Source: an uncultured Eubacteriales bacterium
GTDB lineage: Bacteria > Bacillota > Clostridia > Oscillospirales > Acutalibacteraceae
Length of the DNA: 30,367 nucleotides
Assembly: GCA_900320925.1 (NCBI GenBank)
Contig: ONUD01000069.1
Coordinates: 1-30,367, forward strand
Direction of reading: 5' to 3'
In this document: positions 1 through 12,456 of the stretch, one piece after another
Numbering within the stretch: position 1 is the first letter of the stretch
How the letters are laid out: every line of letters begins with the position of its first letter
The notes under the pieces: generated by a model
The model's database searches: none
Told to the model about the DNA's origin: nothing
Seen by the model: only the letters and a program-made list of their open reading frames with translations
Position numbers and translations under genes: made by a program

Positions 1-1865
1 GTACACAAGGCAGGAATCCCCTCCAGTTCGATCATTCTGACTCCCTGCATGAACGGAAAGACATTTTTCATACGGACGCTTGTCATACAAGTGCTGATGT
101 AGTCCGAAAACTTGCCGTACAATTCTTCACGGTCATCAATAATCAGATACTTCACAGAATTGTCTATCAATTCCCGTTCAATGGCGGCGGCTTTTTCCAC
201 CAGTTCCTCATCAGCAGTATCAAACAGTGTTTCATCACTCACATTGCCGTACATAGCCTCCCTGCCAAGCATCAGGTTCTCGCTTTGAAGCAGTGATTTC
301 TCACATTCCGTGAAGTCATAGCCGCCCAGTGTAAACACTTCCACCGTTGTAGGAACATTTCTTTGTATTTTGTTAATGATATCAAAAAAATCAAATCCGT
401 TGATAAAAGAACAGATTCGATAATTGTCAGTGTCAATCCCCGTGGCATGAAACTCCTGCTCCAGCAGGGCAGTTTCTTCTTCATAGCGTGCCGTCATATA
501 GCTGCCAGATATTTTCAGCCGAGATTTTTCCATAAAATCCTTTTCAACAAAATAGCCGTTGACCAGTCCTGTCAGGATCAAAATACTGCAAATCGTATAG
601 ACGGCTTTGATAACACGTTTCTTTTGCACCCGTTTCAGGAAAAAGGCTGTCGGTACCATGCACAGCGGCAAAAAGACGAAATATCCCTTGAACATATACC
701 GTAAATTCCGAAAGACGGGCAGGCAGCTCAGAATCCGTGCAGTCGTTCCTCCCGTCATCATGGAAAAGAAAAAGAAAATTGCTGTCAATACACCAATCAA
801 AAACGCTCGCCTGTCACTCTGATGGAACAGTCCTTTCAGCATCCGTTTGGTTTCCTCATCACTTTGCTTCCTGACAGAGGGGTACCACTTGACGAACCAC
901 TGTATCCCTAAAAACAGCAGTCCGTAACCGCAAAAGGCAAATGCACCCGCATACAGGATAAGGGAAGCATCCCTTTCCTGCAAAGTAGCAGACGATGAAA
1001 ATACCGCCGTAAGCCCCCATTCCTCAAGCAGTTTTTTCGGCAGTAAACTCCCCAAAATCAGTTCCCGCCCTTGAAGGATATTATACGCAATATTATCTTT
1101 CACTTGGCTGTATGTTGCGGAACGGGCAGAAGACTGCATGAGCAGGACAAGCTGCGGCAGGCTCAAAAACACCCCTGTCAGGCAATTGGTCAACCCCTTG
1201 AGCAGATTCTTTTTTTTGCCGAAAATGCCCATGCACAGAACAATCATGGCATACAGGCAATACTGATAAATCGTATACTGCACATTGCCCAGAAGCAGAC
1301 TGAATGCCAGTATCACACCGCAGGCAATGTAGGATAATCGGGATTCTTTCAGCCTGAGAACGGTGTACAAAATCAGCGGAATGATGAAATAATTGTTGAA
1401 AATATAATACCAATAGCCAAACATATAGAATGCCGAACAGGAGGAATATGCCAACACCAACAACACGGATTTGTGTTCCGACAATCCCAGTTCCCTGCCG
1501 ACCAGAAATGCCATGCTATTGCCCAGTACCACCATGAGGATGATATAAAAGGAAATCGTTGCTCCCCAGCTTTTCCAAAATACAAAACGGTACACGATGT
1601 AAGACAGCAGCATCAGAGGATTGTTCAGACCGTAATACCCTTCATCGGCAATTTCCAGTCCCTTGCTCTGGAAAAAATCATAGTTAGGCATGATACCCGT
1701 GGAAAAGAACTGTTCGTATGCCTTGTCCATAATCGGCATCCACTGATTGCGGTTGTCATCGTACAAAAACATTTCGCTGCTGAATCCCGTGATACACAGC
1801 AGGAGCAGTATTGAAAAAACGGCAATGCCCAAAAGCCACAACCACTGTGTACGTCCGTTTTTCAC
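1..1865 (-). CDS. Polytopic membrane protein, GT-C-fold (YfhO-like) glycosyltransferase; 3'-truncated by the window edge
   Basis: Not in the ORF track because it has no stop inside the window. Translated by hand: open frame from GTG at 1865 (GTGA overlap with the upstream stop, GGAGGAGG RBS) to position 1, about 621 codons. Begins MKNGRTQWLWLLGIAVFSILLLCITGFSSEMFLYDDNRNQWMPIMDKAYEQFFSTGIMPNYDFFQSKG...GYYGLNNPLMLL. An acidic DD follows TM1, then many TM helices and a C-terminal soluble domain, as in YfhO/GT-C enzymes. Confidence 0.75.
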   Translation of the reverse strand, partial: MKNGRTQWLWLLGIAVFSILLLLCITGFSSEMFLYDDNRNQWMPIMDKAYEQFFSTGIMPNYDFFQSKGLEIADEGYYGLNNPLMLLSYIVYRFVFWKSWGATISFYIILMVVLGNSMAFLVGRELGLSEHKSVLLVLAYSSCSAFYMFGYWYYIFNNYFIIPLILYTVLRLKESRLSYIACGVILAFSLLLGNVQYTIYQYCLYAMIVLCMGIFGKKKNLLKGLTNCLTGVFLSLPQLVLLMQSSARSATYSQVKDNIAYNILQGRELILGSLLPKKLLEEWGLTAVFSSSATLQERDASLILYAGAFAFCGYGLLFLGIQWFVKWYPSVRKQSDEETKRMLKGLFHQSDRRAFLIGVLTAIFFFFSMMTGGTTARILSCLPVFRNLRYMFKGYFVFLPLCMVPTAFFLKRVQKKRVIKAVYTICSILILTGLVNGYFVEKDFMEKSRLKISGSYMTARYEEETALLEQEFHATGIDTDNYRICSFINGFDFFDIINKIQRNVPTTVEVFTLGGYDFTECEKSLLQSENLMLGREAMYGNVSDETLFDTADEELVEKAAAIERELIDNSVKYLIIDDREELYGKFSDYISTCMTSVRMKNVFPFMQGVRMIELEGIPALC

Positions 1866-2470
1866 TCCAAGAGCCTCCTCCATAAAGCGATATTCCTGTA
1901 TTTGCAGCAGACAGCATCAATTTGGATATGGTTTTCCTTGATAAAACGTGCATACGCAGTGATTTTTTCCTCCTGCCCCTGCAACTCGGGCGATACAATG
2001 CAAATACGATAGTCCATAGAATGCATTTCCTCTGCGGTTTGTCTGTCAAGGGGAAACTGCGTGAAACAGTCGACCCATACCCATTTTGCCCTGCCCTGCA
2101 TATGGCGGACAGTATCCATGCCCTCGTATTCCGAAAACCTGACAGCAATGTTATGTTCTCCCCTGTCCGAGAGCAGTTTCAGCATGGGAAATGTACTGTC
2201 AAGAAAAAAATAATCCTTTATCGGATACCGTTCCAGCAATTCTTTGATTTTCAGTTCGATTCGTTCACTCTTGACATTGATAATCATCGTGCCGCAGTGG
2301 TAGGCTTTCAGGTATTCTTCAAAGTCCTCGCCGTCTTTGAAAGGATCATGCTCCATGTAGAGCCTGCCGCCAAGGTCGTCCCTGACATCCAGTTCTACGC
2401 CGATTTCATCAGGCGTGGCAAGCATATCACTTTTTTTGTTTACTCTATGAGAAATGTATTCAATCATCAT
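1862..2470 (-). CDS. PLC-like/GDPD-family phosphodiesterase (short TIM barrel)
   Basis: Motifs SHRVN, GVELDVRD, HDPF and IINVK match the GDPD-type H-R / E-x-D / H-D / N-x-K pattern. ATGA overlap with the GT2 stop. Confidence 0.7.
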   Translation of the reverse strand: MMIEYISHRVNKKSDMLATPDEIGVELDVRDDLGGRLYMEHDPFKDGEDFEEYLKAYHCGTMIINVKSERIELKIKELLERYPIKDYFFLDSTFPMLKLLSDRGEHNIAVRFSEYEGMDTVRHMQGRAKWVWVDCFTQFPLDRQTAEEMHSMDYRICIVSPELQGQEEKITAYARFIKENHIQIDAVCCKYRNIALWRRLLE

Positions 2471-3165
2471 TTAATCCCTGCCTTTTTCAGTTTTTTAGAG
2501 AAGTCCAGCGTTCTTTTAATAAATTTCATTTTGGAACGGAAGCCCGTATTCCAATGGGACTGTCCGTGGATCCTTTCGGGAAACAGGACATCAAATCGTA
2601 TGATTTCCAGATTCTTCACGTTTGCCATGGACAGGGCATACAAGTCCAGTGCGAAATCATAGGGCGGTTCTTGCCATTCCTCAAAGAAGCTTCTCGGAAA
2701 AATATTCGGCTGTGCATTGATGTCATAGAGCTTCTGGTGGAGCAGGAGTGTTTCATAGACGCCCATGCCAAAGGTGAAAAAACGGTCAGAAAGCGGACGG
2801 TTTTTGCGTCTGCCCTTGATATAGAGGTTCGTCTGCTGTTTTTCACAGAGAATCTCAAAGCCTTTCAGCACATCTTTCGGGTCGGTCTGCATATCCGCAT
2901 GCGTCCAGCCGATATAGTCACTTTTGGCACTTTTCAGCCCTTGCAGGATTCCGTAACCGTAGCCCTGATTTTTCTCCACCGTCACCACCCTTGCGAATGG
3001 GTACTGCGGTACTAATTCGTCCATGACGGCACGGGAATTGTCGGTAGAGCCGTTGTTGACCAGCACCACCTCTACATTCGGTTTCATGCACGCACCAAAC
3101 CGTTCCAGAATCAGCGGAATATTCTCCGCTTCATTGTAGCATGGGATAATAATGGAAAGTGTCAC
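2467..3165 (-). CDS. GT2 glycosyltransferase, DPM1/GtrB-like polyprenyl-phosphate glycosyltransferase without C-terminal TM helices
   Basis: IIIPCYNEAENI, VNNGSTD, NQGYG, HADMQTDP and a C-terminal ERIHGQSHW; 232 aa; GTG start with AAGGA RBS; adjacent to gtrA. Confidence 0.85.
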   Translation of the reverse strand: MTLSIIIPCYNEAENIPLILERFGACMKPNVEVVLVNNGSTDNSRAVMDELVPQYPFARVVTVEKNQGYGYGILQGLKSAKSDYIGWTHADMQTDPKDVLKGFEILCEKQQTNLYIKGRRKNRPLSDRFFTFGMGVYETLLLHQKLYDINAQPNIFPRSFFEEWQEPPYDFALDLYALSMANVKNLEIIRFDVLFPERIHGQSHWNTGFRSKMKFIKRTLDFSKKLKKAGIK

Positions 3166-3218
3166 TGTTATTCGTCCTTTCTATCAGAGTGAAGTGTGAA
3201 GAGTGGAGCAGTAAGTCA

Positions 3219-3611
3219 CTACTGCTTTGCTTTTCTGAAAACAAAGAATTTCTGCCCGAAGAAGTTCAGGACAGTACTCACACCGGTTGCACACAAAAAG
3301 CCAAGAAGCTGTATATTGATGAAGTACAGCACCGCAGAATTGACAGCGGTATTGATGAGAGCCGTGCAGGCATACAGGATGGCATACTTGATGATTTCCG
3401 TAAAAGAAAATCGTTTGGCTTCAAATGTCCATAATTTATTGATGATAAATCCGACAATGGAACCGCAGATGAAAGAAATCGCTTTTGCCACTGCCAGATC
3501 CATGCCGAGGAACTGCAGGAGCCAGTACATCCCTGCATCAGTCAGCACGGCACTGCCGCCCCCGACAAGAAATTTCAGTATCTCTTTGATGTTAAAGTCC
3601 GATCGTTTCAA
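3219..3611 (-). CDS. GtrA-family flippase-like protein (4 TM)
   Basis: ILKFLVGGGSAVLTD...ISFICGSIVGFIINKLWTF...VLNFFGQKFFVF is the classic GtrA pattern. Likely TTG start at 3611 after AGGGGA (the ORF track extends to 3650); overlaps the HAD 3' end. Confidence 0.9.
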   Translation of the reverse strand: MKRSDFNIKEILKFLVGGGSAVLTDAGMYWLLQFLGMDLAVAKAISFICGSIVGFIINKLWTFEAKRFSFTEIIKYAILYACTALINTAVNSAVLYFINIQLLGFLCATGVSTVLNFFGQKFFVFRKAKQ

Positions 3612-4275
3612 AATATCCCCTGATTTCTCTGTAATTTGAACAGCACACACAGTGGTCGGCCGTTTGATTGGAAAGGTAAATCGCTTTCATGCCTGCACGA
3701 GAAGCTCCAACAATATCTCGCTGATAGTCGTCACCAATGTAAACACACTCTGCGGGCAGGACACCCAATTTTTGGAGTGTCATCTGATACATGACAGCAG
3801 ACGGTTTTTCTGCCCCCGCCTCTTCACTGGACACCATGCAATCAATTTTGTGTTCAATACCGAGCCGCAGAATTTTCCGGAACTGGATATGAGCCGTCAT
3901 GTCGGTACAAATGGCGGTGCGGATATTTTTTTGCTTGAGAGAATCCAGCAATGCTCCTGCACCATCGTACAGTTCCATTTTTTCAAGGAAGTGTGTCCAG
4001 TAAGCATCATACATCGGCAGGGCATGACTAAACGGATGGATGTCCAGCAGTTCGGCACATCGCTGACAATACAGGATACGATTATGCCGTGCCGCACAGT
4101 CATAGGGAAGATGGTGTTTGATGTCTTCTCTCGCCTGTGCAAAAGCCTGTGCAAAGCGACTTGCCTCAATTCCCAAAGAACATACATACTCTTTCAGTTT
4201 TTCATAACCGTATTGATGGCACGGGTCATAAGGGTACAGGGTGTTGTCAAGGTCAAATATCACAGCTTTGAGCAT
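3592..4275 (-). CDS. HAD-superfamily (IA) phosphatase
   Basis: Motif I DLDNT, motif II ICTD, motif III EKP and motif IV GDDYQRD are all intact; the start directly abuts the upstream TGA. Confidence 0.9.
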   Translation of the reverse strand: MLKAVIFDLDNTLYPYDPCHQYGYEKLKEYVCSLGIEASRFAQAFAQAREDIKHHLPYDCAARHNRILYCQRCAELLDIHPFSHALPMYDAYWTHFLEKMELYDGAGALLDSLKQKNIRTAICTDMTAHIQFRKILRLGIEHKIDCMVSSEEAGAEKPSAVMYQMTLQKLGVLPAECVYIGDDYQRDIVGASRAGMKAIYLSNQTADHCVCCSNYREIRGYFETIGL

Positions 4276-6342
4276 TCAATTTCCACCTTCCGTAATTTTA
4301 TGGATCACCATCAGGAGAATGATTTGCAGGATACGGTTATGCACACTGCCGCAGTCCGAGAAATCTCCGTACAACTCCTCAAAATCCGTAATGAGATTTT
4401 CGGCAATATGTCGGAAAGGAATGGATTGTTGTGTATTGGTGGTAGAGCCGTCAACAATAATCGTCTGCATATCGGGGTCACTGCAAAAATCAAAATCCGT
4501 CTTGATACCGTACTGTTCCAGAATGGTCAGGAACGGTTCAATGTTGATGGCAGAGCTTAAAGTGATTTTCATGCTGATCTGTTCTTCATGGTCAGCCTCA
4601 AAATCATCGGTCAGTCCGCTGTCATAGTACTCGATAATGAGATTGGCGTAGTCTTTCTGGGGCAGGATATATTTGACAAAATCTCCTCGTCTTTGTTCGA
4701 TTTGTCGGCGGATACCGTCCATCGAATAGCCCCGCTTGCCAATATCCCGCCGGCACTTCCAGAATACCCGCAGTCTGTCATCGGTATGGAGGAAGATTTT
4801 TAAATCGAGATTTTTCCGCATTTGCGGCAGATACAGAGAATGCAGACCGGAAATGACAATAAACCGTTCGGGTTTGATAGTATGGCTGGGCGTAAAGGTA
4901 CCCGTATTATGGTCATAGTCCACACGCTGGACATTTTCGCCGTTTCTCAGCGTGGCAATATCATGTGCCTGCCGATAGAGGAAATTGGCTTTAGGATTGA
5001 GGTGGGTATACTTTTCCCAGTGTTTTTCCCCACGCTCCCATTTGTGGTCGCCGTCACCTTCAATCAGGAGAATATTTTTCTGTCCGAGTGTGGCTGTGAG
5101 AATGTCATTCAAAGAGGATTTGCCTGTACCGCTGTCACCGGAAATTCCAATGGTAAAAGGAATCTTCCTGCGTTTGTACAGGGCATTGCTGCTGATACCG
5201 TACTGGTAGATGGCGGCAATCACAAACAGCATAGCGGCAGACATGACCGTAAACACAAGATTGACAACCGTGGCATTGCCGATTTTCAGGAAATCCAGGG
5301 AGTATCCCATAAAGTAAATATCCACATAGTTGGCACGGTGGCAGAAAATGAAGAACAGCAGGTACATGGCATTCATCACATAATACAGTGCCAGCTTGCT
5401 CTTTTTATGCTTCTGCCCGACAAAGATTGCCGATGTGAACGGCACAATCCACACAAACCACCCCGGCATGGGGGAAACGAATATCAGAAAGACGGCAAAT
5501 AAAATGCCGCAGAAGCTGAATGTCAGATCCCGTCCGATTCTTGTCACGGTAAAGATGTGGATATAGATAGCCGCTACCGTGAATACGGCCAGATACAGCT
5601 TTACATCGCCAAAGGACAGGTAGACGTTCATGGCAGAGTTCTGCACCTTGTTCATCAGCACCGTATAGAAAAAGGCTTCTCCCATGAAAGGAGCAATAAT
5701 CGCCGTGGAGAGAGCCAGAAACAGCATGACCAGCAAAATGGTGCGAACCGACTTTTTTCTTCGGAAACAGTAGTAAAACAGCAGCGGTACCACGGCAAGC
5801 ATACTTTGTTTGCTCATGACGGAGAGCGTCAGGAACACCACAAAGCGAATATCAGCATATTTTTGCTGCCCGAAGAGGTAGTACAGTGATACGGTCAGCA
5901 ATCCGACAGGAATGATGTCAAGCTGCCCATGCATATACACGGCATACAGAATAACAGGCGAGCTGTAATATACGTAAGTCAACAGTTTTTTTTGCTGTGG
6001 GAACATTTTCACCAGAAACAACAGTGTCACTCCGTCAAACACCAGCAAAGGCAGTTTAAATAGGACGTTTTGTAAAAAAATACTCCCGAATGACAGGTAT
6101 TTTGACAGTACCCCTCCTGCACTCATGATGAACAGCATCACAGGAGGATACGGGAAGGCATCCGTGATTCCTCTCTCGTAAAACAAATTGTAGGGGTTAA
6201 AATTATCGTTGGTAAATTCCCTGATAAACGGCATGAACAATTCATTCTGGTAATCAGAGGAAAACAGTCCCAATAAAACGATCTTCACCACTGTCAGTGC
6301 AGCGATAAAAATCAGTATTGATCGATTTTTTTTCATATCCAT
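4276..6342 (-). CDS. Fusion: N-terminal GT-C-type (GT87/PIG-M-like) polytopic glycosyltransferase + C-terminal phosphoribulokinase/uridine-kinase family domain
   Basis: The N-terminal ~390 aa are hydrophobic, with SSDY, PYPP, FKLPLLVFD, HGQLDIIP and SVMSKQ motifs. Walker A GDSGTGKS lies at residues 402-409 (nt 5116-5139), followed by THLNPKAN, YDHNTG, GLHSLY, FWKCRRDIGKRG and YILPQKDYA, which parallel the plant/cyanobacterial PRK motifs. Confidence 0.8.
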   Translation of the reverse strand: MDMKKNRSILIFIAALTVVKIVLLGLFSSDYQNELFMPFIREFTNDNFNPYNLFYERGITDAFPYPPVMLFIMSAGGVLSKYLSFGSIFLQNVLFKLPLLVFDGVTLLFLVKMFPQQKKLLTYVYYSSPVILYAVYMHGQLDIIPVGLLTVSLYYLFGQQKYADIRFVVFLTLSVMSKQSMLAVVPLLFYYCFRRKKSVRTILLVMLFLALSTAIIAPFMGEAFFYTVLMNKVQNSAMNVYLSFGDVKLYLAVFTVAAIYIHIFTVTRIGRDLTFSFCGILFAVFLIFVSPMPGWFVWIVPFTSAIFVGQKHKKSKLALYYVMNAMYLLFFIFCHRANYVDIYFMGYSLDFLKIGNATVVNLVFTVMSAAMLFVIAAIYQYGISSNALYKRRKIPFTIGISGDSGTGKSSLNDILTATLGQKNILLIEGDGDHKWERGEKHWEKYTHLNPKANFLYRQAHDIATLRNGENVQRVDYDHNTGTFTPSHTIKPERFIVISGLHSLYLPQMRKNLDLKIFLHTDDRLRVFWKCRRDIGKRGYSMDGIRRQIEQRRGDFVKYILPQKDYANLIIEYYDSGLTDDFEADHEEQISMKITLSSAINIEPFLTILEQYGIKTDFDFCSDPDMQTIIVDGSTTNTQQSIPFRHIAENLITDFEELYGDFSDCGSVHNRILQIILLMVIHKITEGGN

Positions 6343-7908
6343 TTATCCCAAAAAAGCGTCACTTTCGGCAAACTCCCGCCAATACTTCATACAGTTTTCA
6401 TAGTACTCGTATTCTCCCGGTGTTCCCCAGCCGATATATCTTTCTATTTCAAAGACCTTGGTTTTCAGCCCGTTTAAAACAGCATATTTCACCACTTGGT
6501 CAGCATAAAATTCGTTGTTGATACGGTCATTGGCTCGTATCATCTGCTCCGCACAGGATACAAAATCCCGTCCGTGACGGAACCAGAAGGTGGCAACCAC
6601 GGCATGATCCTTCATCGGTGTGTCGGAAATCGGCTTCTTGACCGATACATCCGTCACATTGTCATCCCCGTCCACAGCAATCCAGCCGTACGCATTCGGA
6701 TTGTCCAGCACTCTCGGGTCATGCCGATAGGTAAATACAAGCACCTCGCTTTCCTCCATAACCTTTTGCAATTTCACGGCATTATACACCATCCCGTTGT
6801 CACAGCCGGCAATCAGGAGCGGACGGTCATTGTCAATGAACTGCTTTGCCATTAAACAGGTACTTGCCTGTCCTTCTGTCAGTCTGTCCAGTGTGAGGAA
6901 ACGTGCAAGAGGGAAATTCTCCCGAATGACCGCTTCGGTGCCGTCAGCCTTGTGGAAATCCCTGTCCACGAAAATGACATTGCTGCCGTCCGCTTTCACA
7001 AACGGAACATCGCTGACCGCTTCCACCACCATCGGACGCTTCAAACCATCTCTGTGGCTTGTAGTGGGAATGGCGGGCTTGCTGACAGAATAGCCTGCTT
7101 CGGCAAAACGTTTTCCTTCTCCTGCCATTGGTATCAGTATATTGGTATCCTGCTTCACACAGTCAAGCCAAAATACATACTCTCTCATATCCTCGGGTGT
7201 CCCCCACTGGCAGAACTTCTCCACATTGGCAGGTACCCAGACTTGCAAGCCGTCCCTGACAAGAAAATTATAAATCAGGCTGGCATAAAATTCCCCGTTG
7301 ATGGTCTGATGGCTCTTCATCAGTTCCCGTGCATAGTACTTCATGGTTTTGCCGCTTTTGAAATAGTACACCCCGGGGGAGTGAAGGGCATTGTATTTGT
7401 TTTCTGCAAATGAATACTTTTCCCTGATTTCTATCAGGTTGTCGTTTTCATCCGTCAGACAGGAGGCATATACATTCTGTTTCGGGGCAAGGTTCGGGTG
7501 GAATCCCGTATAGCACGGCACAGCACCGTCACAGTCTCTTTCGACAGCTTGACGGCAAAAAGCGGCATAGTCCCATGTCATGTAAAAATCACAGTAGTTG
7601 ATGATACACGGCTCATCATCCGCAATGACAGACTCTGCACGCAGCACATCTGCCACAGGTCCCTGCTTTGTCCAGTCCCGCACAGCAAAGATCGTTCCCA
7701 TTCTCTCCAGCAAGGGACGCATTTCGGGGATGGTCTGCAAATGCTCTTCCCTGCAAATAAACAGAAATTCATCCTTTTCCGTATACATCCCCTTGACGAT
7801 CCATTCGATCATCGGCTTTCCGTTGACTCTGATAAGGGGTTTCAGTGTTTTGTAGCCTGCTGCCACAAATCTGGAACCATATCCTGTCATAGGAATGATA
7901 ATTTTCAT
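6343..7908 (-). CDS. Tandem (two-domain) sugar-phosphate nucleotidyltransferase, GT-A fold
   Basis: Two NTP-transferase N-terminal motifs (IIIPMTGYGSRFVAAGY..KP and ILIPMAGEGKRFAEAGY..KP), each domain ending in WGTP-x-D/E. ATG at 7908 after AAGGTG (track start GTG 7917). Confidence 0.85.
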   Translation of the reverse strand: MKIIIPMTGYGSRFVAAGYKTLKPLIRVNGKPMIEWIVKGMYTEKDEFLFICREEHLQTIPEMRPLLERMGTIFAVRDWTKQGPVADVLRAESVIADDEPCIINYCDFYMTWDYAAFCRQAVERDCDGAVPCYTGFHPNLAPKQNVYASCLTDENDNLIEIREKYSFAENKYNALHSPGVYYFKSGKTMKYYARELMKSHQTINGEFYASLIYNFLVRDGLQVWVPANVEKFCQWGTPEDMREYVFWLDCVKQDTNILIPMAGEGKRFAEAGYSVSKPAIPTTSHRDGLKRPMVVEAVSDVPFVKADGSNVIFVDRDFHKADGTEAVIRENFPLARFLTLDRLTEGQASTCLMAKQFIDNDRPLLIAGCDNGMVYNAVKLQKVMEESEVLVFTYRHDPRVLDNPNAYGWIAVDGDDNVTDVSVKKPISDTPMKDHAVVATFWFRHGRDFVSCAEQMIRANDRINNEFYADQVVKYAVLNGLKTKVFEIERYIGWGTPGEYEYYENCMKYWREFAESDAFLG

Positions 7909-7918
7909 GTTATTCACC

Positions 7919-8911
7919 TTATTTCATTTGTTTTCTGTATTTTTCGGCATCCCAATTGGTCAGAAAGGACTGTTCCCTGCCGGAGATGGGAAGGATTTCC
8001 CTGCTGCCGGCAGACAGGCTGACTTTGGCACTGAATGACAGGACACTTTCTATATCGACAGCTTTCTTGATGTCGGGTGCAAGGATATAAACTTCCCCTC
8101 CCGCCAATACAACGCTTGGCAGAGGATTCGGCAATTCTATACTATTTGTAATATCCGGAATAGTTTCACCGCCGTATACAATGCAGTCCGGACAGAAATC
8201 ATACTGCCACATCCTGCCCTTTTCCAAAGCCTGACAAATATATTTGTTTTCGGAATGATAGACAATTCCCTGAAAATCAGGGTGCTGCTGCCGGATTCCT
8301 TTATAAATGCAAGAGGTCATTTTGTCAGCCTGTTCCGAAATGCCGAGAGAACGGCTGATTTTGTCAAGCACCGCTTGTGTTTTGTCAAGGACATAGACCG
8401 CACTGTCACCGCTGACAATCATGCCGTGGTTCTGCAAAAAGATTATTTCAGGCGGCTCAGACCTTTCTTTATACGCATTGTATAATTCAATTCCCAGCTG
8501 TAAACCCGGAGTATGATATCCAATCAGGAGTGCCTGAGGGAAGAGTGCCTGCAATTCGTCCATGCCGCCTTTTGTGGAAAGGAGGACATTGGCGGCGACG
8601 GGGTGTGTATGCAGGGTATAGGTTCCTGTAAAGGAGTGCAGGAAGGTTTCAATTGACGGTCTTGCACCGCTGACTAATGCTTTTTGCAGAATATCATTTT
8701 CAGAGCATCCTGTCTGAAGCAGTTCTGTAATGATACGATAATTGACAACAGACATCCCGCTGTTTTCCGTCACCTCGGCAAGCCTGACCCCTGATGATTT
8801 GATATACATGAGGGTGTCGGAAATTTTCACAGAGGTATTGCCGCCCGCTGCCTGGATCCAGTCCGCTCTCATACCCGCAAATACCGACAAATAGGCAAAA
8901 TCTTTTAACAT
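7919..8911 (-). CDS. Class II aldolase/adducin-family metalloenzyme (RhaD-bifunctional N-terminal type)
   Basis: AGGNTSVK, IKSSG, RPSIETFLH, LHTHP and LQNHG provide the Zn-binding His triad and the catalytic Glu. Start 8911 is preferred (GGTGA RBS); 8923 is the alternative. Confidence 0.85.
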   Translation of the reverse strand: MLKDFAYLSVFAGMRADWIQAAGGNTSVKISDTLMYIKSSGVRLAEVTENSGMSVVNYRIITELLQTGCSENDILQKALVSGARPSIETFLHSFTGTYTLHTHPVAANVLLSTKGGMDELQALFPQALLIGYHTPGLQLGIELYNAYKERSEPPEIIFLQNHGMIVSGDSAVYVLDKTQAVLDKISRSLGISEQADKMTSCIYKGIRQQHPDFQGIVYHSENKYICQALEKGRMWQYDFCPDCIVYGGETIPDITNSIELPNPLPSVVLAGGEVYILAPDIKKAVDIESVLSFSAKVSLSAGSREILPISGREQSFLTNWDAEKYRKQMK

Positions 8912-8944
8912 CTTCATCACCATTCTGTATAAAATTCATTTTTT

Positions 8945-8973
8945 ATCATACCATATCTCTTCCCAAAAATCAA
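8945..8973 (-). promoter_or_regulatory. sigma-A promoter for the glycosylation operon
   Basis: Minus strand TTGATT-17 nt-TATGAT with an extended TG. Confidence 0.65.
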
Positions 8974-9000
8974 TCATGCCTGTCAGAATTTTTACCAATC

Positions 9001-9030
9001 AAAAAAACTGCCACCTCAAAGAGATGGCAG
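9001..9030 (-). terminator. Intrinsic terminator after trpS
   Basis: Minus strand CTGCCATCTC-TTT-GAGGTGGCAG stem (one G.U) followed by T7, 6 nt after the trpS stop. Confidence 0.8.
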
Positions 9031-9036
9031 GAAATC

Positions 9037-10041
9037 TTATTTGGCAAGGAAACCGATTTTTTTCATCGCCTTGTCAAGGGTACGTTGGGAGAGGTGCAGG
9101 GCAAAGTCTGCCCCCTTGCGGTACTGCTCGACAAGGGAATCTTTATGGCGGATATAGTCGTTAAAGCGTTCTTGAATGGGGCGAAGCTCCTCGATGACCG
9201 CTTCGGCAACGGCGGTTTTAAAATCCCCGTAGCCCTTGCCCTCAAACTCCACGGCAATCTCCTCAGCGGTCTTGCCCGTCACGGCACTCATAATGCCAAT
9301 GAGGTTGTTAATGCCGTCCTTGCCCTCACCGACACGCACCACGGCTTCGGAGTCAGTGACAGCTCTCTTGAATTTCCTCATGATGACATCGGGGGAATCC
9401 AGTACTGCCACCCATGCATTGACGTTTTCATCGGACTTGGACATTTTTTTAGTGGGATCCTGCAGGGACATGACTCTTGCCCCGACCTGTGAAATATACG
9501 GATCAGGCACGGTAAAGACATTGCCGTAAATGCCGTTGAAACGTTCGGCAATATTGCGGGAGAGTTCCAAGTGCTGTTTCTGGTCAGCCCCCACGGGAAC
9601 CATGTCTGCCTGATACAACAGAATATCTGCCGCCATGAGGGACGGATAGGCAAACAAGCCGGCATTCACATTGTCAGCGTGTTTCAGGGACTTGTCCTTA
9701 AACTGCGTCATGCGGGAGAGTTCCCCGAACTGGGTATAGCAGTTCAGAATCCATGCCAGTTCCGCATGGGTATGGACATGGCTCTGGATAAAGAACGGAC
9801 TTTTTGCCGTATCAATGCCGCAGGCAAGAAGCAGGGCATAGGCATTCAGGATATTCTGACGGAATTTCTGAGGCTCCTGCCTGACGGTGATGGCATGGAG
9901 GTCAGCCACGGCAAAAATGCAGTGGTAATCGTCCTGCAACTTGACCCAGTTCCGCAAAGCACCCAGATAATTGCCGAGTGTAATGGTGCCGCTGGGCTGG
10001 ATGGCACTGAAAATAACCTTTTTCTTTTCGGAAGCTTCCAT
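9037..10041 (-). CDS. trpS: Tryptophan--tRNA ligase
   Basis: FSAIQPSG-TLGNYLGAL (HIGH equivalent), YPSLMAADILLY, VPVGADQKQHLEL and KMSKS; TAATG overlap with the upstream gene. Confidence 0.97.
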   Translation of the reverse strand: MEASEKKKVIFSAIQPSGTITLGNYLGALRNWVKLQDDYHCIFAVADLHAITVRQEPQKFRQNILNAYALLLACGIDTAKSPFFIQSHVHTHAELAWILNCYTQFGELSRMTQFKDKSLKHADNVNAGLFAYPSLMAADILLYQADMVPVGADQKQHLELSRNIAERFNGIYGNVFTVPDPYISQVGARVMSLQDPTKKMSKSDENVNAWVAVLDSPDVIMRKFKRAVTDSEAVVRVGEGKDGINNLIGIMSAVTGKTAEEIAVEFEGKGYGDFKTAVAEAVIEELRPIQERFNDYIRHKDSLVEQYRKGADFALHLSQRTLDKAMKKIGFLAK

Positions 10042-11231
10042 TACAGTACCTCCTTGGCAAGTTCACCGAGAATTTTGATCCCCTTTTCCAACTGTTCATC
10101 GGTAGGAGTGGAGAAGTTGATACGGAAGGAACTGCACTGCTCGCTTTCATCGGTAAGGAACGCATTTCCGGGTACAACGCATACTTTGCGGAGAACTGCC
10201 TGCTTGCAGAAATCCACCATGTCCACACCCTCCGGCAGTTTACACCAGATAAACAGACCGCCTTCAATTTTCTGGTAGGTAATCTTATTGGGAACCAGGT
10301 AACGGTCTAACAGTTCCATGCAGAAATCAGCCTTTTTGCGGTAGATTTCACGCAGATTTTCCAGATGTGCCTTAAAGTCGTATTCCGTCATAAATTTGCA
10401 GGCAACCATCTGTGACCAGATGTTGGTATGCACGTCCTCGCCCTGCTTGCAAACAATCATTTTCTGGACAATTTCTTTCGGTGCAATGACATAGCCCACA
10501 CGCATACCCGGGGACAGGATTTTCGAGAAGGAACCGACATAAGCCACAATGCCGTCCTCGTCAAAGGACTTGATCGGCGGGATATTTTCGCCGCTGATCC
10601 GCAGTTCACCATAGGGGTTATCCTCTAAAATCATCACGCCGTACTGCTTGGCAAGTGCATAAATTTGTTTTCTTTTTGCAAGGCTGGTCGTCACGCCTGA
10701 GGGATTCTGGAAGTTGGCAATAATGTAGATAAAACGGACATTTTTTTCGGTTTGGAGAGCCTTTTCCAGTGCTTCTATATTCATGCCGTCATGCTCTAGC
10801 GGGATACCGCACAGGCGTGCATTGTACGAACGGAACGAATTGAGGGAACCGATAAAGCTTGGTGCTTCACAAATCACGGTATCTCCCTCATTGACCATGG
10901 ATTTTGTAATCAAATCCATGACCTGCTGTGCCCCTGATGTAATAATCAGGTCATCGAAATCTCTGCCCACATGGTAATGCTCTTTCATATAGTCACCGAC
11001 CGCTTTTCTCAGGGGAGCATATCCCTCTGTCACACTGTACTGGAGGGCAGCAATGGGGTTGTCCCGAAAGATATTGGCGGAGATTTCGGCAATTTCCTTG
11101 ACAGGGAATGCTTCCGGGGCAGGGTTGCCTGCGGAGAGGGATACCACCGTAGGATCGGCGGCATATTTAAAAATTTCTCTGATTGCAGAGGGTTTCAGGG
11201 TCTTTACCCTCTCAGAAAGGATATATTCCAT
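10041..11231 (-). CDS. PLP-dependent aminotransferase class I/II (2-aminoadipate/aromatic aminotransferase, LysN-like)
   Basis: PSAIREIFK, NFQNPSG, EDNPY, GSFSKILSPGMRVG (PLP lysine) and FRINFS. True start MEYILSER at 11231 (the track ORF to 11342 runs through the promoter). Confidence 0.9.
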   Translation of the reverse strand: MEYILSERVKTLKPSAIREIFKYAADPTVVSLSAGNPAPEAFPVKEIAEISANIFRDNPIAALQYSVTEGYAPLRKAVGDYMKEHYHVGRDFDDLIITSGAQQVMDLITKSMVNEGDTVICEAPSFIGSLNSFRSYNARLCGIPLEHDGMNIEALEKALQTEKNVRFIYIIANFQNPSGVTTSLAKRKQIYALAKQYGVMILEDNPYGELRISGENIPPIKSFDEDGIVAYVGSFSKILSPGMRVGYVIAPKEIVQKMIVCKQGEDVHTNIWSQMVACKFMTEYDFKAHLENLREIYRKKADFCMELLDRYLVPNKITYQKIEGGLFIWCKLPEGVDMVDFCKQAVLRKVCVVPGNAFLTDESEQCSSFRINFSTPTDEQLEKGIKILGELAKEVL

Positions 11232-11265
11232 CAAAAACAACTTCTTTCTCTTTAAGATACTTCCC

Positions 11266-11294
11266 ATTTTATCACATCTTTCCCCATCTTGCAA
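11266..11294 (-). promoter_or_regulatory. sigma-A promoter for aminotransferase-trpS
   Basis: TTGCAA-17 nt-TAAAAT with an extended TG, 34 nt upstream of the ATG at 11231. Confidence 0.7.
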
Positions 11295-11404
11295 GAACTT
11301 TATCTTTCTTATGGGAACCGCATAAAACAATCCATAAGCCAATCTGAAAATGGCACAAAGGGATACGTTTGCCCGCTGTTTGACATTGCAGGAAAGTTAC
11401 TGTC

Positions 11405-11538
11405 TTGCCGCCACGCTCCCTCCGTCAAAAACCGTTGTAACTTCATTACGTGAGATACGTTCTATCGGTTCTCAAAGTTAATTACAATTATCACTCCGTT
11501 TGTACGGTTTTTGCCACCTCCCTCACGGGGGGAGGCTT
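11405..11538 (-). repeat. REP-like palindromic element, copy A
   Basis: Its ends match copy B in inverted orientation: 26/26 nt at 11405-11430 and 28/30 nt at 11509-11538. Internal 10-bp stem 11426-11435/11504-11513. Confidence 0.8.
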
Positions 11539-11589
11539 GCGTTACTTTATCCCTTGCCAAAATTTCTGCCAAAGTGGTAAGCAGTAGAT

Positions 11590-11721
11590 AAGCCTCCCTC
11601 TGTGAGGGAGGTGGCAAAAGCTGGTAATTTATCTTCCGAAATGCCATAGTTTTCTTCACACAATGAAGTGATGGAACAACAGGAAGTTGTCCAGCTTTTG
11701 ACGGAGGGAGCGTGGCGGCAA
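11590..11721 (+). repeat. REP-like palindromic element, copy B
   Basis: AAGCCTCCCTCTGTGAGGGAGGTGGCAAAA...TTTTGACGGAGGGAGCGTGGCGGCAA; internal 10-bp stem 11615-11624/11691-11700. Confidence 0.8.
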
Positions 11722-11803
11722 AGCAGTATCCATTGTCATATCTTTCAGCGGGAAAATGAATTGGTGCATTTTCGCAATACTTTCTTAAATTTGCTCATTG
11801 ACA

Positions 11804-11833
11804 GTATAAAAGCTTGTTGTGCTGTCCACAATG
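11804..11833 (+). promoter_or_regulatory. Putative sigma-F (forespore) promoter of spoIIR
   Basis: GTATA-15 nt-GTCCACAATG against the sigF consensus GYATA-15-GGNNANAHTR (one mismatch). spoIIR is a known sigF target in Bacillus and Clostridium. Confidence 0.65.
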
Positions 11834-11862
11834 AGGGTAGGAAATCAAAGGAGGTTACATAG

Positions 11863-12456
11863 ATGAAATTACTGGTCAAAGCGGTTCTGTGCGGCTATTT
11901 CATTGCATGTCTGCTGTCCATGACGGGATTTTGCAGTATTTGCGGAAAGATACGGGAAGATGTGTTCCGCCTGCACATTATTGCCAACTCCGACAGTGCG
12001 GCGGATCAGGCACTGAAATACAAGGTGCGTGACGGCTTGCTGGCCTATACGTCAGTCCTGTTCCAAGACTGCCGTACCAGAGAGGAAGCCGTTGCCGCCG
12101 CCAAAAACAATACGGACAAGCTGCGTGCTTATGCACAGGAGCTTGTCCGTGAAAACGGTTCAGAGGATACGGTGGATGCCTATGTCACCGCCATGCCGTT
12201 CACGACACGGGTCTATGAAGAGTTCACCCTGCCGGCAGGAACCTATGATGCCCTGCGTATCGTCATCGGCAGGGGAGAGGGACACAACTGGTGGTGTGTC
12301 TTATATCCTGCCTTGTGCATTCCCACTGCACAGGGAAATCCGCTGGAAACACTCGACAGTTGTGAAACCGATGTCATGACCAACAGTGACGAATACGAAG
12401 TGAAGTTCAAGGTAGCCGAATTATGGGAAAGCCTTTGTTCATGGTTCCGACACTGA
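11863..12456 (+). CDS. spoIIR: Stage II sporulation protein R
   Basis: N-terminal signal, RLHIIANSDS..DQALKYKVRD, LPAGTYDALRIVIGRGEGHNWWCVLYPALC; AAGGAGG RBS. Confidence 0.95.
   Translation: MKLLVKAVLCGYFIACLLSMTGFCSICGKIREDVFRLHIIANSDSAADQALKYKVRDGLLAYTSVLFQDCRTREEAVAAAKNNTDKLRAYAQELVRENGSEDTVDAYVTAMPFTTRVYEEFTLPAGTYDALRIVIGRGEGHNWWCVLYPALCIPTAQGNPLETLDSCETDVMTNSDEYEVKFKVAELWESLCSWFRH

Follow-up and report, generated by a model that had tools for sequence, protein, structure and literature searches.

Gene content of the operon

We analyzed a 30,367-nucleotide stretch of DNA (contig ONUD01000069.1; here, the window) from a gut Clostridia bacterium. Eight ORFs (g1 to g8) all lie on its minus strand and abut or overlap (Table 1). 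The successive junctions from g1 to g8 are a 1-nt gap, two of 0 nt, a 59-nt overlap, a 53-nt gap, a 4-nt overlap, and a 22-nt overlap. The upstream trpS gene is closed by a strong terminator (9030 to 9008). A sequence-only reading had proposed an eight-gene operon with one promoter, and the ORFs were confirmed in this arrangement behind a promoter-like site. The claim of a single promoter is less firm: such a site does precede g1, but as a consensus match only.

Table 1. Positions of the operon's genes, domains, and promoter-like site in the window
Feature	Position	Strand	Basis
Promoter-like site TTGATT-17-TG-TATGAT (putative)	8945..8973	-	Consensus scan and sequence; between trpS terminator (9008-9030) and g1 start codon (8923)
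g1, class II aldolase-fold Zn enzyme, 334 aa, C-terminal extension of ~130 aa	7919..8923	-	Pfam Aldolase_II, E 2e-14
g2, tandem sugar-phosphate nucleotidyltransferase NTa-NTb, 524 residues	6343..7917	-	Pfam/NCBIfam NTP_transf_3, twice
NTa, g2 residues 1-255	7153-7917	-	
NTb, g2 residues 256-524	6343-7152	-	
g3, GT-C (GT87-like) membrane domain, cytoplasmic phosphoribulokinase (PRK) domain, C-terminal tail	4276..6342	-	Pfam/NCBIfam for PRK
g3 membrane domain, residues 1-390	5173-6342	-	~10 hydrophobic segments, acidic first outer loop
g3 PRK domain, residues about 395-613	within 4276..6342	-	Pfam PRK, E 8.5e-35; NCBIfam PRK07429, 187.6 bits
g4, HAD-IA phosphatase, proposed ribulose-1,5-bisphosphate (RuBP) 5-phosphatase	3592..4275	-	NCBIfam NF053830
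g5, GtrA-family small membrane protein, 143 aa as called	3219..3650	-	Pfam GtrA_DPMS_TM, E 7.6e-21
g6, soluble GT2, 232 aa, proposed polyprenyl-phosphate glycosyltransferase	2467..3165	-	Pfam Glycos_transf_2, E 8e-25
g7, GDPD/PI-PLC-fold phosphodiesterase (PDE), 202 aa	1862..2470	-	AF2 model and Foldseek
g8, large polytopic membrane protein, YfhO/AftD-like GT-C candidate	3..1883	-	~10 hydrophobic segments; atlas neighbors

Pfam and NCBIfam searches bore out the earlier domain calls of Aldolase_II, NTP_transf_3 (twice), PRK, HAD, GtrA, and GT2. The true start of g5 may lie about 10 codons downstream of the called one. No Pfam or other HMM matched g7. Its AF2 model (pLDDT 95.9) gave GDPDs (1zcc, 7e0v, 1o1z, and 3mz2) as top Foldseek matches, in agreement with the GDPD-like call. 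Residues H8, R9, E26, D28, and H41 are invariant in the g7 family, and this His/Arg/Glu/Asp/His set looks like the GDPD catalytic motif.

The two GT-C calls rest on weaker evidence than the others, namely, a homologue match and protein-atlas neighbors. Neither candidate in the window (the g3 membrane domain and g8) matched a GT-C HMM, and g8 matched no HMM of any kind; GT87 was matched by 1 of 24 homologues of the g3 fusion. The atlas neighbors are GT87/MptA/Alg6 for g3 and YfhO, GT-C_AftD, and DUF6311 for g8, which is incomplete at the contig end (627 aa visible versus 764 aa in the orthologue at locus L005).

Distribution of the cassette

The order aldolase-NTa-NTb-membrane::PRK-HAD-(GtrA)-GT2-PDE was conserved in about 80 species loci (78 distinct; 82 related loci were examined). 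The E. coli IncR plasmid NZ_CP145712 carries sequence matches to all of the g1 to g7 families in a different order, with a 586-aa unannotated protein where g8 would stand. Because of this synteny in 78 distinct species loci and the reordering of the same families on the plasmid, the gene set is far beyond a chance association. The most conserved cassette protein is g6 (57 to 79% identity across the 80 related loci holding GT2; 56% to the plasmid copy), and the g3-type fusion protein was found in 219 species genomes. GtrA was detected in only 30 of the 82 loci at an E value of 1e-5. A second large polytopic protein adjoins the cassette in 69 of the 82, and it is g8-like in only 7. In a deltaproteobacterial variant, HAD and aldolase are missing, and the set is reduced to NTb, the fusion, GT2, and g7. 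The cassette has a patchy, accessory distribution that extends to a plasmid.

The PDE was also found on 39 IMG/VR contigs, mostly giant-virus MAGs. NTa and NTb were present on 36 of these contigs and the PRK, HAD, and aldolase-fold genes on 25 to 29, while GT2, GtrA, or the membrane domain was present on only 2. Since the giant-virus contigs hold the six soluble enzymes only, often as fusions, the soluble half of the cassette, of which g7 is part, would make a soluble activated sugar, and GT2, GtrA, and GT-C would deliver it outside. The earlier reading had named a lack of co-occurrence as grounds for rejecting its interpretation. That objection fails, because metabolic and glycosylation genes occur together in about 80 species and on the plasmid, and the soluble half recurs in giant viruses.

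Predicted route from Ru5P to an activated sugar

The PRK domain of g3 aligned without gaps to Synechococcus PRK (6hzk) and scored under the NCBI curated cutoff (187.6 versus 236). All seven catalytic and Ru5P-binding residues that were checked (equivalents of CrPRK D57, R64, Y103, H105, R159, D160, and R164) were present, and the seven (Asp/His and Arg/Tyr/Arg/Asp/Arg, respectively) were invariant across 24 g3 homologues. The best NCBIfam model for g4 was RuBP 5-phosphatase (189.5 bits versus 111 for the runner-up, below the cutoff of 330). The same model ranked first for all eight cassette HADs tested, which comprised g4 and seven others of clostridial, E. coli plasmid, and giant-virus origin. 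A haloarchaeal RuBP 5-phosphatase, encoded beside a class II aldolase, was shown to yield ribulose-1-P (Ru1P) (PMC9700705). Together, the conserved PRK residues and the likeness of the HAD to the haloarchaeal enzyme point to conversion of Ru5P to RuBP and then to Ru1P, supporting the pentulose-phosphate origin proposed earlier.

On balance, we favor a self-contained cassette that would take Ru5P to a nucleotide-activated five-carbon sugar, then to a lipid carrier, and finally to an extracytoplasmic glycan. As its conserved catalytic and substrate residues suggest, the cytoplasmic PRK domain would make RuBP. Homology and fusions (a cassette HAD is joined to PRK in P0040) suggest that g4 would then remove the 5-phosphate. 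The resulting Ru1P would be able to close to a furanose, unlike Ru5P. The closest NCBIfam models to g1 are rhamnulose-1-P aldolase N-domains and MtnB, and its family-invariant residues comprise the GGGN phosphate loop, the Zn triad, and the catalytic Glu (E92, H105, H107, and H166). This Zn-dependent enzyme might be a ketose-1-phosphate epimerase or modifier, most plausibly acting by C3 or C4 epimerization of ribulose to xylulose. In viral contigs, g1-type domains are joined to HAD or PRK (HAD::aldolase and PRK::aldolase).

Both halves of g2 keep the G-x-G-x-R...K, C-D, K, E-x-Y, and WGTP motifs, and the nearest PDB entry is 4evw, followed by GalU/GlmU. In many loci, NTa and NTb have a gene each; in others they are fused, as they are in a viral PDE::NTa::NTb protein of ~740 aa. 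We propose that NTa, g7, and NTb would jointly yield the final NDP-sugar. In the chemistry that we favor, which is speculative, NTa would nucleotidylate the 1-phosphate, and g7 would promote attack by the neighboring anomeric 2-OH, so that a 1,2-cyclic phosphate forms and NMP leaves. Ring opening would then leave an anomeric 2-phosphate for NTb to convert to an NDP-ketofuranose. The cyclic-phosphate scheme employs every enzyme. In canonical GDPD/PI-PLC chemistry, the phosphate would go back to O1, and the NTa-g7 pair would then be futile.

Nucleotidylation followed by cyclization occurs in RNA 3′-phosphate cyclase RtcA, and cyclic intermediates are formed by PI-PLC/GDPD enzymes; 2H cyclic phosphodiesterases open ADP-ribose 1″,2″-cyclic phosphate to the anomeric 1″-phosphate. 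The proposed action of NTa and g7 (plus 2H in some lineages) resembles these reactions in NMP activation, displacement of NMP by a vicinal hydroxyl, and opening on the other oxygen. RtcA is nevertheless unrelated to the cassette enzymes, the main cassette has no 2H domain that could open the cyclic phosphate, and we know of no nucleotide-sugar pathway that proceeds in this way. Elsewhere, g7-type domains are joined to NTa-NTb, GT2, GT61, or 2H cyclic phosphodiesterases. The 2H::g7 fusions form three divergent clusters, one of which adjoins an NTb-like gene and a g6-like GT2. The fusions to 2H, GT2, and GT61 fit activation through a sugar cyclic phosphate. Cyanophage S-SM2 has a class II aldolase and a protein whose two halves are orthologous to NTa and NTb, with no detectable g7, so a phosphodiesterase step between the two transferases may be dispensable.

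An aldopentofuranose donor, e.g., NDP-D-arabinofuranose, is an unlikely product of these enzymes. It would be made by a kinase, a distal phosphatase, and a nucleotidyltransferase; the aldolase-fold enzyme would convert between phosphates of ketoses and aldoses, and accessory roles would be left to the second transferase and the phosphodiesterase. Class II aldolases form a C2-C3 enediolate, which would not be the C1-C2 species needed for an aldose-1-phosphate, and the operon has no SIS isomerase by Pfam and NCBIfam. The NDP-heptose analogy of the sequence-only reading (GmhA/HddA/GmhB/HddC) stops at these two points; the kinase/HAD/nucleotidyltransferase logic, established for that pathway, stands, as does the shift of phosphate from distal to proximal before nucleotidylation. 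In favor of such a donor, both g2 halves are nearest to anomeric sugar-1-P transferases (GalU, GlmU, and heptose-1-P guanylyltransferase). The same logic was recently shown for phage UDP-D-arabinofuranose (Araf), made from Ru5P by A5P isomerase, the AfhE kinase/nucleotidyltransferase, and the AfhF HAD (PMC13326640), and three-component systems are known to add Araf, Ribf, and Xylf side chains (PMC11127046). In contrast with both pathways, the cassette kinase is a PRK, not GHMP or APH-like, with the residue set of a kinase acting on C1 of Ru5P and not that of an anomeric kinase. The phosphate would sit on the nonanomeric C1 of a ketose, and the additional phosphodiesterase and the strictly coinherited NTa/NTb pair would be left unexplained by an aldose product.

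Proposed transfer to the surface and comparison with known systems

For the NDP-ketofuranose that we favor, homology suggests that g6 would load polyprenyl phosphate with the sugar and that the GtrA protein g5 would help in translocation. The best PDB matches of g6 are dolichol-P-mannose synthase (DPMS) 5mlz, ArnC, and GtrB. From the analogy with Gtr systems, transfer of the sugar to surface polymers would fall to two GT-Cs, the conserved domain in g3 and the variable g8. The predicted GT2, GtrA, and GT-C-like components are all present, the GT-C-like proteins by the weaker evidence given above. In the tests run here, every element of the earlier interpretation held up. The identities of the sugar and the acceptor are themselves deduced.

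Still less probable is a teichoic acid-like decoration in which the added unit, a pentulose-phosphate or polyol-phosphate-like group, is joined by a phosphodiester. The NDP-1-ketose would then be a phospho-sugar donor, and the GDPD-like enzyme would work on phosphodiester-linked groups, trimming or editing them. In Ru1P, as in ribitol-5-P and glycerol-3-P, which are activated as CDP-alcohols, the phosphate does sit on a primary carbon. The g7 fold is that of glycerophosphodiesterases acting on such linkages, and some g7 homologues are joined directly to GT2 or GT61 glycosyltransferases. However, a DPMS/GtrB-like GT2 with GtrA and GT-C moves glycosyl, not phospho-alcohol, groups; enzymes of the TagF, LicD, or CDP-alcohol phosphotransferase type are absent from the cassette; and g7 is soluble and accompanies cytoplasmic enzymes in viruses without a membrane component.

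It is very improbable that the PRK, HAD, and aldolase merely adjoin an ordinary Gtr-like module using a common donor: although a RuBP source, RuBP 5-phosphatase, and class II aldolase form a proven haloarchaeal catabolic route (PMC9700705), no homologue has the kinase apart from the GT-C membrane domain, viruses lacking central metabolism inherit the triad along with NTa, NTb, and g7, the ATP cost of taking Ru5P to DHAP would be senseless in a glycolytic Clostridium, and g1 is less close to FucA-type Ru1P aldolase than to its models above and has an extra conserved C-terminal domain.

Gtr-type systems (GtrA/GtrB/GtrC of Shigella and Salmonella, CsbB/GtcA/YfhO of Gram-positives, and PpgS/Rv3632/Rv3779 of mycobacteria) likewise combine a DPMS/GtrB/ArnC-related GT2, a GtrA-family protein, and a variable large GT-C-like protein and are also patchy and accessory. 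They use a housekeeping donor (UDP-Glc or UDP-GlcNAc), whereas the cassette has six dedicated soluble enzymes for its own. It also has a second, conserved GT-C joined to the kinase, its GT2 lacks the GtrB C-terminal membrane helices, and GtrA is absent from many copies.

The haloarchaeal non-carboxylating pentose bisphosphate pathway shares RuBP and Ru1P intermediates, a class II aldolase-fold partner, and the nearest curated relative of g4. That pathway is catabolic; its RuBP is supplied by ribose-1,5-bisphosphate isomerase, and its end products are DHAP and glycolaldehyde (PMC9700705). In the cassette, RuBP would instead come from PRK, and the route would continue to nucleotidyl activation and glycosylation by way of a HAD that scores below the family cutoff.

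The earlier reading had recognized no characterized system with these genes; the literature that could be searched likewise yielded none, nor any description of the pathway. The closest published system is the PRPP/MATE/GT136 pentofuranose system (Kelly et al. 2024, PMC11127046), comprising a polyprenyl-phosphoribose synthase, a MATE flippase, and a GT136 GT-C, with an auxiliary epimerase setting the added pentose. As in the case of mycobacterial decaprenyl-P-arabinose, a GT-C adds a five-carbon furanose outside the cytoplasm, after polymerization, and draws it from a polyprenyl-monophosphate donor. Its enzymes differ: a UbiA-like synthase uses PRPP to make the donor, with a 5-phosphatase that works on the lipid. 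The cassette lacks UbiA-like and MATE proteins and has in their place PRK, HAD, an aldolase-fold enzyme, two nucleotidyltransferases, a phosphodiesterase, and GT2, which suggests that the sugar is nucleotide activated before reaching the lipid. The g7 fusions to 2H, GT2, and GT61 in other lineages are a new observation. The cassette is widespread yet unstudied, and it probably makes an unusual activated five-carbon sugar from the common metabolite Ru5P.

Layout, recurrence, and mobility of the operon

Positions 1 to 8973 of the window carry eight minus-strand open reading frames with nearly no intergenic space, and a promoter-like site precedes the first of them. The eight-gene operon claimed by the sequence-only reading is thus borne out, as are its aldolase, tandem nucleotidyltransferase, phosphoribulokinase (PRK), HAD, GtrA, and GT2 calls. 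No RNA element was found with Rfam in positions 1 to 12000. Beyond trpS, a 433-aa aminotransferase-fold protein (10041-11342, minus strand), whose stop overlaps the trpS start, has the MocR-type regulator PdxR as its best model; it matches model positions 88 to 447 only and is apparently without the N-terminal DNA-binding domain.

Features of the operon and its surroundings, with the complete copy found on a plasmid
Feature	Position	Strand	Assignment
g1	7919-8923	minus	class II aldolase-fold protein (Pfam, NCBIfam)
g2	6343-7917	minus	two nucleotidyltransferase domains, NTa and NTb (Pfam, NCBIfam)
g3	4276-6342	minus	PRK domain, residues 398-572, after ~390 hydrophobic residues (Pfam, NCBIfam)
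g4	3592-4275	minus	HAD phosphatase (Pfam, NCBIfam)
g5	3219-3650	minus	GtrA (Pfam, NCBIfam)
g6	2467-3165	minus	GT2 (Pfam, NCBIfam)
g7	1862-2470	minus	GDPD-like fold (AlphaFold model and Foldseek); no HMM match
g8	3-1883	minus	no HMM match; runs off contig
Promoter-like site TTGATT-17-TG-TATGAT	8973-8945		precedes g1
Strong intrinsic terminator	9030-9008		ends trpS
trpS	9037-10041		upstream of operon
Plasmid copy (L085)	6022-14984 of NZ_CP145712		complete cassette; E. coli IncR plasmid, 33 kb

The expectation that these families co-occur was upheld by a gene-neighborhood scan of one genome per species. The g3 fusion protein was found in 219 species; 78 distinct loci were kept and, with four fetched earlier, gave 82 for analysis, some of them truncated. 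The families are syntenic in the 78 loci, where the order aldolase, NTa, NTb, membrane-PRK fusion, HAD, (GtrA), GT2, g7 recurs nearly unchanged. Carriers are mostly gut Lachnospiraceae and Clostridium. Across the 82 loci, truncated ones included, NTa and NTb were each present in 81, GT2 in 80, g7 in 76, HAD in 74, the aldolase in 69, and GtrA in 30. In 69 of the 82, the cassette has a second large polytopic protein as its immediate same-strand neighbor, whereas a g8 homolog was present in 7, so the position of this protein is conserved but its sequence is not. In this it resembles the serotype-specific GtrC of Gtr systems.

The cassette is an accessory, mobile unit, as indicated by its sparse occurrence and by the E. 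coli plasmid copy, which has a different gene order: NT-NT, GtrA, GT2, phosphodiesterase, membrane-PRK, HAD, and aldolase, after which comes an unannotated protein of 586 aa. The plasmid proteins are 23% to 56% identical to those of the window, and IS26, IS66, and IS903B flank the cassette. Two of 5,426 complete E. coli genomes carry it, both on this same small plasmid; the second copy is identical and belongs to a strain from a bullfrog. The closest relatives of the plasmid protein are found in environmental Betaproteobacteria (Orrella, Crenobacter). Within the bacterial order to which the window belongs, the fusion occurs in 2 of 301 sampled genomes.

A reduced variant was seen in a Deltaproteobacteria MAG (JAISBT010000027; loci L004/L017). 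It consists of NTb only, membrane-PRK, a 174-aa unassigned protein, GT2, and g7, with no HAD or aldolase. Upstream are inositol-monophosphatase-like, 2-hydroxyacid dehydrogenase, SIS, CTP_transf_3-SIS fusion, DUF386, and UDP-galactopyranose mutase genes.

A soluble half shared with viruses and a bacterial membrane half

Scanning IMG/VR with a g7 profile recovered 39 contigs, mostly low-GC giant-virus MAGs, one of which carries an NCLDV capsid gene. NTa and NTb adjoin g7 in 36 of the 39, and PRK, HAD, and the aldolase-fold gene are additionally present in 25 to 29. GT2, GtrA, or a membrane domain occurs in only two, both with bacterial GC content. The viral enzymes are often fused, as g7-NTa-NTb in one protein of ~740 residues, HAD-aldolase (~550 residues), and PRK-aldolase. 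Since the viral contigs nearly lack the membrane half, the six soluble enzymes (aldolase-fold, NTa, NTb, PRK, HAD, and g7) presumably make something usable by soluble viral glycosyltransferases, most simply a nucleotide sugar, and delivery in bacteria falls to the GT2, GtrA, and putative GT-C proteins. Because g7 travels with the soluble viral enzymes, this division places it in donor synthesis and not in lipid or wall turnover. In four giant-virus MAG contigs (L094, L099, L102, and L104), PRK proteins of ~460 aa have an N-terminal domain of ~215 residues that has no Pfam match and occupies the place of the bacterial GT-C domain. Another viral contig, L121, is high in GC.

Of all cassette proteins, the GT2 g6 (Pfam E = 8e-25) shows the highest conservation. 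Its closest PDB relatives are the Pyrococcus dolichol-P-mannose synthase (DPMS 5mlz), ArnC, and GtrB, and it lacks the C-terminal transmembrane helices found in GtrB. The g5 protein belongs to the GtrA family (PF04138, E = 7.6e-21, 74.9 bits versus a cutoff of 26.1). The two GT-C candidates are the conserved g3 N-domain, joined to PRK, and the variable g8; their GT-C labels are less secure. Neither gave a match in HMM searches (g8 even at E of 10), and 1 of 24 g3 homologs matched GT87 (E = 2.4e-6). Atlas neighbors of the g3 N-domain are the GT87, MptA/B, and Alg6/8 families; those of g8 are YfhO, GT-C_AftD, and DUF6311. The N terminus of g3 is basic, and the acidic first loop after TM1 carries a family-conserved SSDYQN motif, which would fit a GT-C active site facing outward and a kinase in the cytoplasm.

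In the closest relative (L005, fusion protein 76% identical), the g8 ortholog has 764 residues and is followed by an unrelated copper ATPase gene, so the operon ends there with g8. At least three further g8-like copies or fragments were seen in the window's genome, on contigs C29 (4-897 and 908-2662, in tandem) and C63 (3-386), corresponding to loci L128 and L127; both contigs break inside g8-like genes. The window's g8 does not continue on C63, since the overlapping residues differ and C63 holds another paralog. The multiple copies suggest several acceptor-specific transferases sharing one donor, and the operon may extend into an array of them.

Enzymes of the soluble half

The PRK domain of g3 aligns without gaps to Synechococcus PRK 6hzk (E = 5e-35). 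In Chlamydomonas PRK, D57 and H105 are the catalytic base and its partner, R64 and Y103 bind the phosphate of ribulose 5-phosphate (Ru5P), and R159, D160, and R164 serve Ru5P binding and catalysis. The g3 equivalents of these residues (D428, H476, R435, Y474, R530, D531, and R535, respectively) are invariant in the family (24 homologs), and the P-loop, the Asp-His dyad, and the Ru5P-binding Arg, Tyr, and Arg-Asp-Arg are all present. The domain passes the Pfam PRK cutoff (120.8 versus 22). Its score against NCBIfam PRK07429, 187.6 bits, is below the cutoff of 236; the match covers model positions 5 to 222 of 326, the C-terminal dimerization part being replaced. Despite this score, the conserved residues point to a true Ru5P 1-kinase.

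For g4, the top NCBIfam model was NF053830, the haloarchaeal ribulose-1,5-bisphosphate (RuBP) 5-phosphatase (189.5 bits, against 111 for the runner-up), which was also the top model for the other seven cassette HADs tested, from Clostridia, the E. coli plasmid, and giant viruses. With a score below the equivalog cutoff of 330 bits, g4 is a putative member of this family, predicted to work like it. The archaeal phosphatase is strictly RuBP specific and yields ribulose-1-phosphate (Ru1P), and its gene shares an operon with that of a class II aldolase (PMC9700705). PRK-HAD fusions exist in some Clostridia and, together with the PRK residues, the HAD model, and the HAD-aldolase fusions, make conversion of Ru5P to RuBP, then to Ru1P, then use by g1 the most economical reading. 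Up to Ru1P, the route is reminiscent of the pentose bisphosphate pathway of haloarchaea (PMC9700705). The purpose of such a detour may lie in the 5-OH, which is free in Ru1P but not in Ru5P and makes a furanose possible; cyclized Ru1P was seen in the archaeal study, in support of furanose formation (PMC9700705).

The g1 protein matches class II aldolases in Pfam (E = 2.2e-14) and carries an additional conserved C-terminal domain. Its Zn ligands (H105, H107, and H166), catalytic Glu (E92), and phosphate loop (GGGN, 26-29) are the same in all 16 sequences compared, so that the three His ligands, the Glu, and the Gly-rich loop of class II (Zn) aldolases, epimerases, and dehydratases are all present. 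The closest NCBIfam models are rhamnulose-1-P aldolase N-domains and MtnB, both of which bind ketose-1-phosphates. Chemistry in this superfamily proceeds through a metal-stabilized C2-C3 enediolate, which makes C3/C4 epimerization or dehydration possible and offers no ready path to an aldose-1-phosphate; on these grounds, we favor g1 as a predicted ribulose-to-xylulose epimerase. The idea that the aldolase is dispensable was rejected: three of five genomes with a seemingly aldolase-less locus have an aldolase nearby or on another contig, which marks g1 as a core gene.

Both halves of g2 keep the G-x-G-x-R...K motif, the C-D metal site, a conserved Lys, E-x-Y, and WGTP, and both are closest to 4evw, followed by GalU, GlmU, and heptose-1-P guanylyltransferase. 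Cyanophages S-SM2 and Bellamy carry the tandem at 38% (over 98% of g2) and 36.5% identity, each half of the S-SM2 tandem being orthologous to the corresponding half of g2; the pair predates the split of the cyanophage and Clostridia copies. Given the kept motifs, old divergence, and nearest relatives, NTa and NTb each look catalytically competent and distinct from the other. The S-SM2 tandem (L083, NC_015279 154113-157421) adjoins a 370-aa unassigned protein and a short class II aldolase and belongs to a large island of sugar genes, among them transketolase, heptose-pathway, and GT genes; RuBP is supplied by the host.

For g7, the GDPD-like call held at the level of fold; at the level of sequence, no Pfam match was found even at E of 10, PF03009 included. 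Its profile had no match among PDB sequences, nor did g7 in the phage collection. An AlphaFold model (21 homologs, pLDDT 95.9) gave the glycerophosphodiesterases 1zcc, 7e0v, 1o1z, and 3mz2 as best Foldseek hits (E of 3e-6 to 2e-5, TM of 0.60 to 0.72), consistent with a GDPD TIM barrel. All family members share H8-R9, E26-x-D28, and H41, and this His/Arg, Glu/Asp/His set, mapped by motif and not by superposition, resembles the GDPD catalytic pattern.

A library-wide search with g7 (E ≤ 1e-30) gave 268 clusters at 50% identity. Fusion partners among the best 150 were NT-NT, GT61, a g6-type GT2, and, in three divergent clusters, an N-terminal phosphoesterase of the 2H (cyclic phosphodiesterase) family. 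The 2H assignment comes from a Pfam match in one cluster (E = 5.5e-7), from alignment of the two H-x-T/S motifs in each of the three, and from weak PDB matches to 2H phosphodiesterases only. A variant cassette with such a fusion was seen in L125 (6120-11385; Logan SRR24035577), in the order 836-aa protein, 2H-g7, NTb-like gene (37.5%), and g6-like GT2 (50%); an RNA 3'-phosphate cyclase gene a few kilobases upstream is probably unrelated. The 836-aa protein joins GtrA, a ribulose-phosphate-3-epimerase-like part, a weak Pol-beta NT match, and a histidine phosphatase. It adjoins 2H-g7 and occupies the place of PRK, HAD, and aldolase, and its epimerase-like part lends weak support to epimerization by g1.

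A proposed route to a ketofuranose donor

The operon had been read as a pathway for lipid-linked pentose glycosylation. The PRK and HAD likenesses, the pairing of GT2 with GtrA, and the separation into soluble and membrane halves speak, by inference, for extracytoplasmic glycosylation through a lipid carrier, supplied by a sugar-activation pathway that has not been described. The membrane half would work in the manner of Gtr/CsbB-type three-component systems, and a housekeeping nucleotide sugar as its donor is argued against by the six dedicated soluble enzymes. The likeness to NDP-heptose synthesis stood in part: the overall kinase-phosphatase-NT logic is similar, as it is to the phage UDP-Araf route (PMC13326640), but Pfam and NCBIfam found no SIS-domain ketose/aldose phosphate isomerase in the eight proteins. 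The closest published functional analog is the PPPRS/MATE/GT136 pentofuranose system described by Kelly et al. (2024), which attaches alpha-Ribf or Xylf with the help of a MATE flippase and GT136; its polyprenyl-P donor is built from PRPP by a UbiA-like synthase (PMC11127046). The same databases detected no UbiA-like polyprenyl-phosphoribose synthase, MATE flippase, or GT136 in the operon. In the literature that could be searched, we found no description of this gene set, of a PRK-glycosylation link, or of NDP-xylulose or NDP-ribulose synthesis, in agreement with the earlier statement that no characterized system was recognized in these genes.

In the proposed pathway, PRK and HAD would together relocate the Ru5P phosphate to C1, and g1 would epimerize ribulose to xylulose. 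NTa would nucleotidylate the ketose 1-phosphate; g7 would then cyclize the 1-phosphate onto the anomeric 2-OH with loss of NMP, forming a 1,2-cyclic phosphate, to be opened to the anomeric 2-phosphate, with 2H help in some lineages. Nucleotidylation of this 2-phosphate by NTb would give an NDP-ketofuranose. By homology, g6 would transfer its sugar to polyprenyl phosphate, and the lipid-linked product would then cross the membrane to serve GT-C enzymes.

The cyclic-phosphate part of this scheme, from NTa to NTb, is plausible because it uses every enzyme and explains the g7-NTa-NTb fusion, and the 2H-g7 fusions fit it, since cyclic phosphates arise from GDPD/PI-PLC action and are the substrates that 2H enzymes open. 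We nevertheless regard it as somewhat doubtful. The main cassette has no 2H domain, and canonical ring opening would restore the 1-phosphate. The deltaproteobacterial variant has NTb only, and S-SM2 has NTa-NTb without detectable g7: none was detected in the complete S-SM2 and S-CAM9 genomes, and hhalign revealed no hidden g7 domain in cyanophage proteins beside the NT genes. It is only tentatively that we propose the soluble half, common to bacteria, archaea, phages, and giant viruses, as a new anomeric activation of ketopentoses via a 1,2-cyclic phosphate and as the missing D-xylulofuranose or ribulofuranose donor pathway.

Bearers of xylulose include Y. enterocolitica O:5,27, C. jejuni RM1221, and chloroviruses MT325/TN603; a search for a tie to such bacteria found no Yersinia or Campylobacter among relatives of the plasmid protein. 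D-Xylulofuranose residues have been reported in E. coli O95/O97 O antigens, a 2019 review of E. coli O antigens states that no donor genes are known for D-Xulf, and xylulofuranose of unexplained origin occurs in chlorovirus N-glycans. If our proposal is true, it would provide the missing donor route for the xylulofuranose (or ribulofuranose) of E. coli O95/O97 and chloroviruses, making the long-open origin of these donors directly testable, and would give glycobiology a new nucleotide sugar and possibly a new activation chemistry. Thousands of genes in Lachnospiraceae and Clostridium genomes that are now annotated as "uridine kinase" or "hypothetical protein" would likewise be accounted for. 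The portability of the cassette (plasmid, patchy distribution, viral copies) and its variable GT-C partners make it a probable source of variation in surface antigens and phage receptors among gut commensals. If the reading holds, the Calvin-cycle PRK and RuBP serve cell-surface sugar synthesis in nonphotosynthetic gut bacteria and many giant viruses, a role so far undescribed for phosphoribulokinase.
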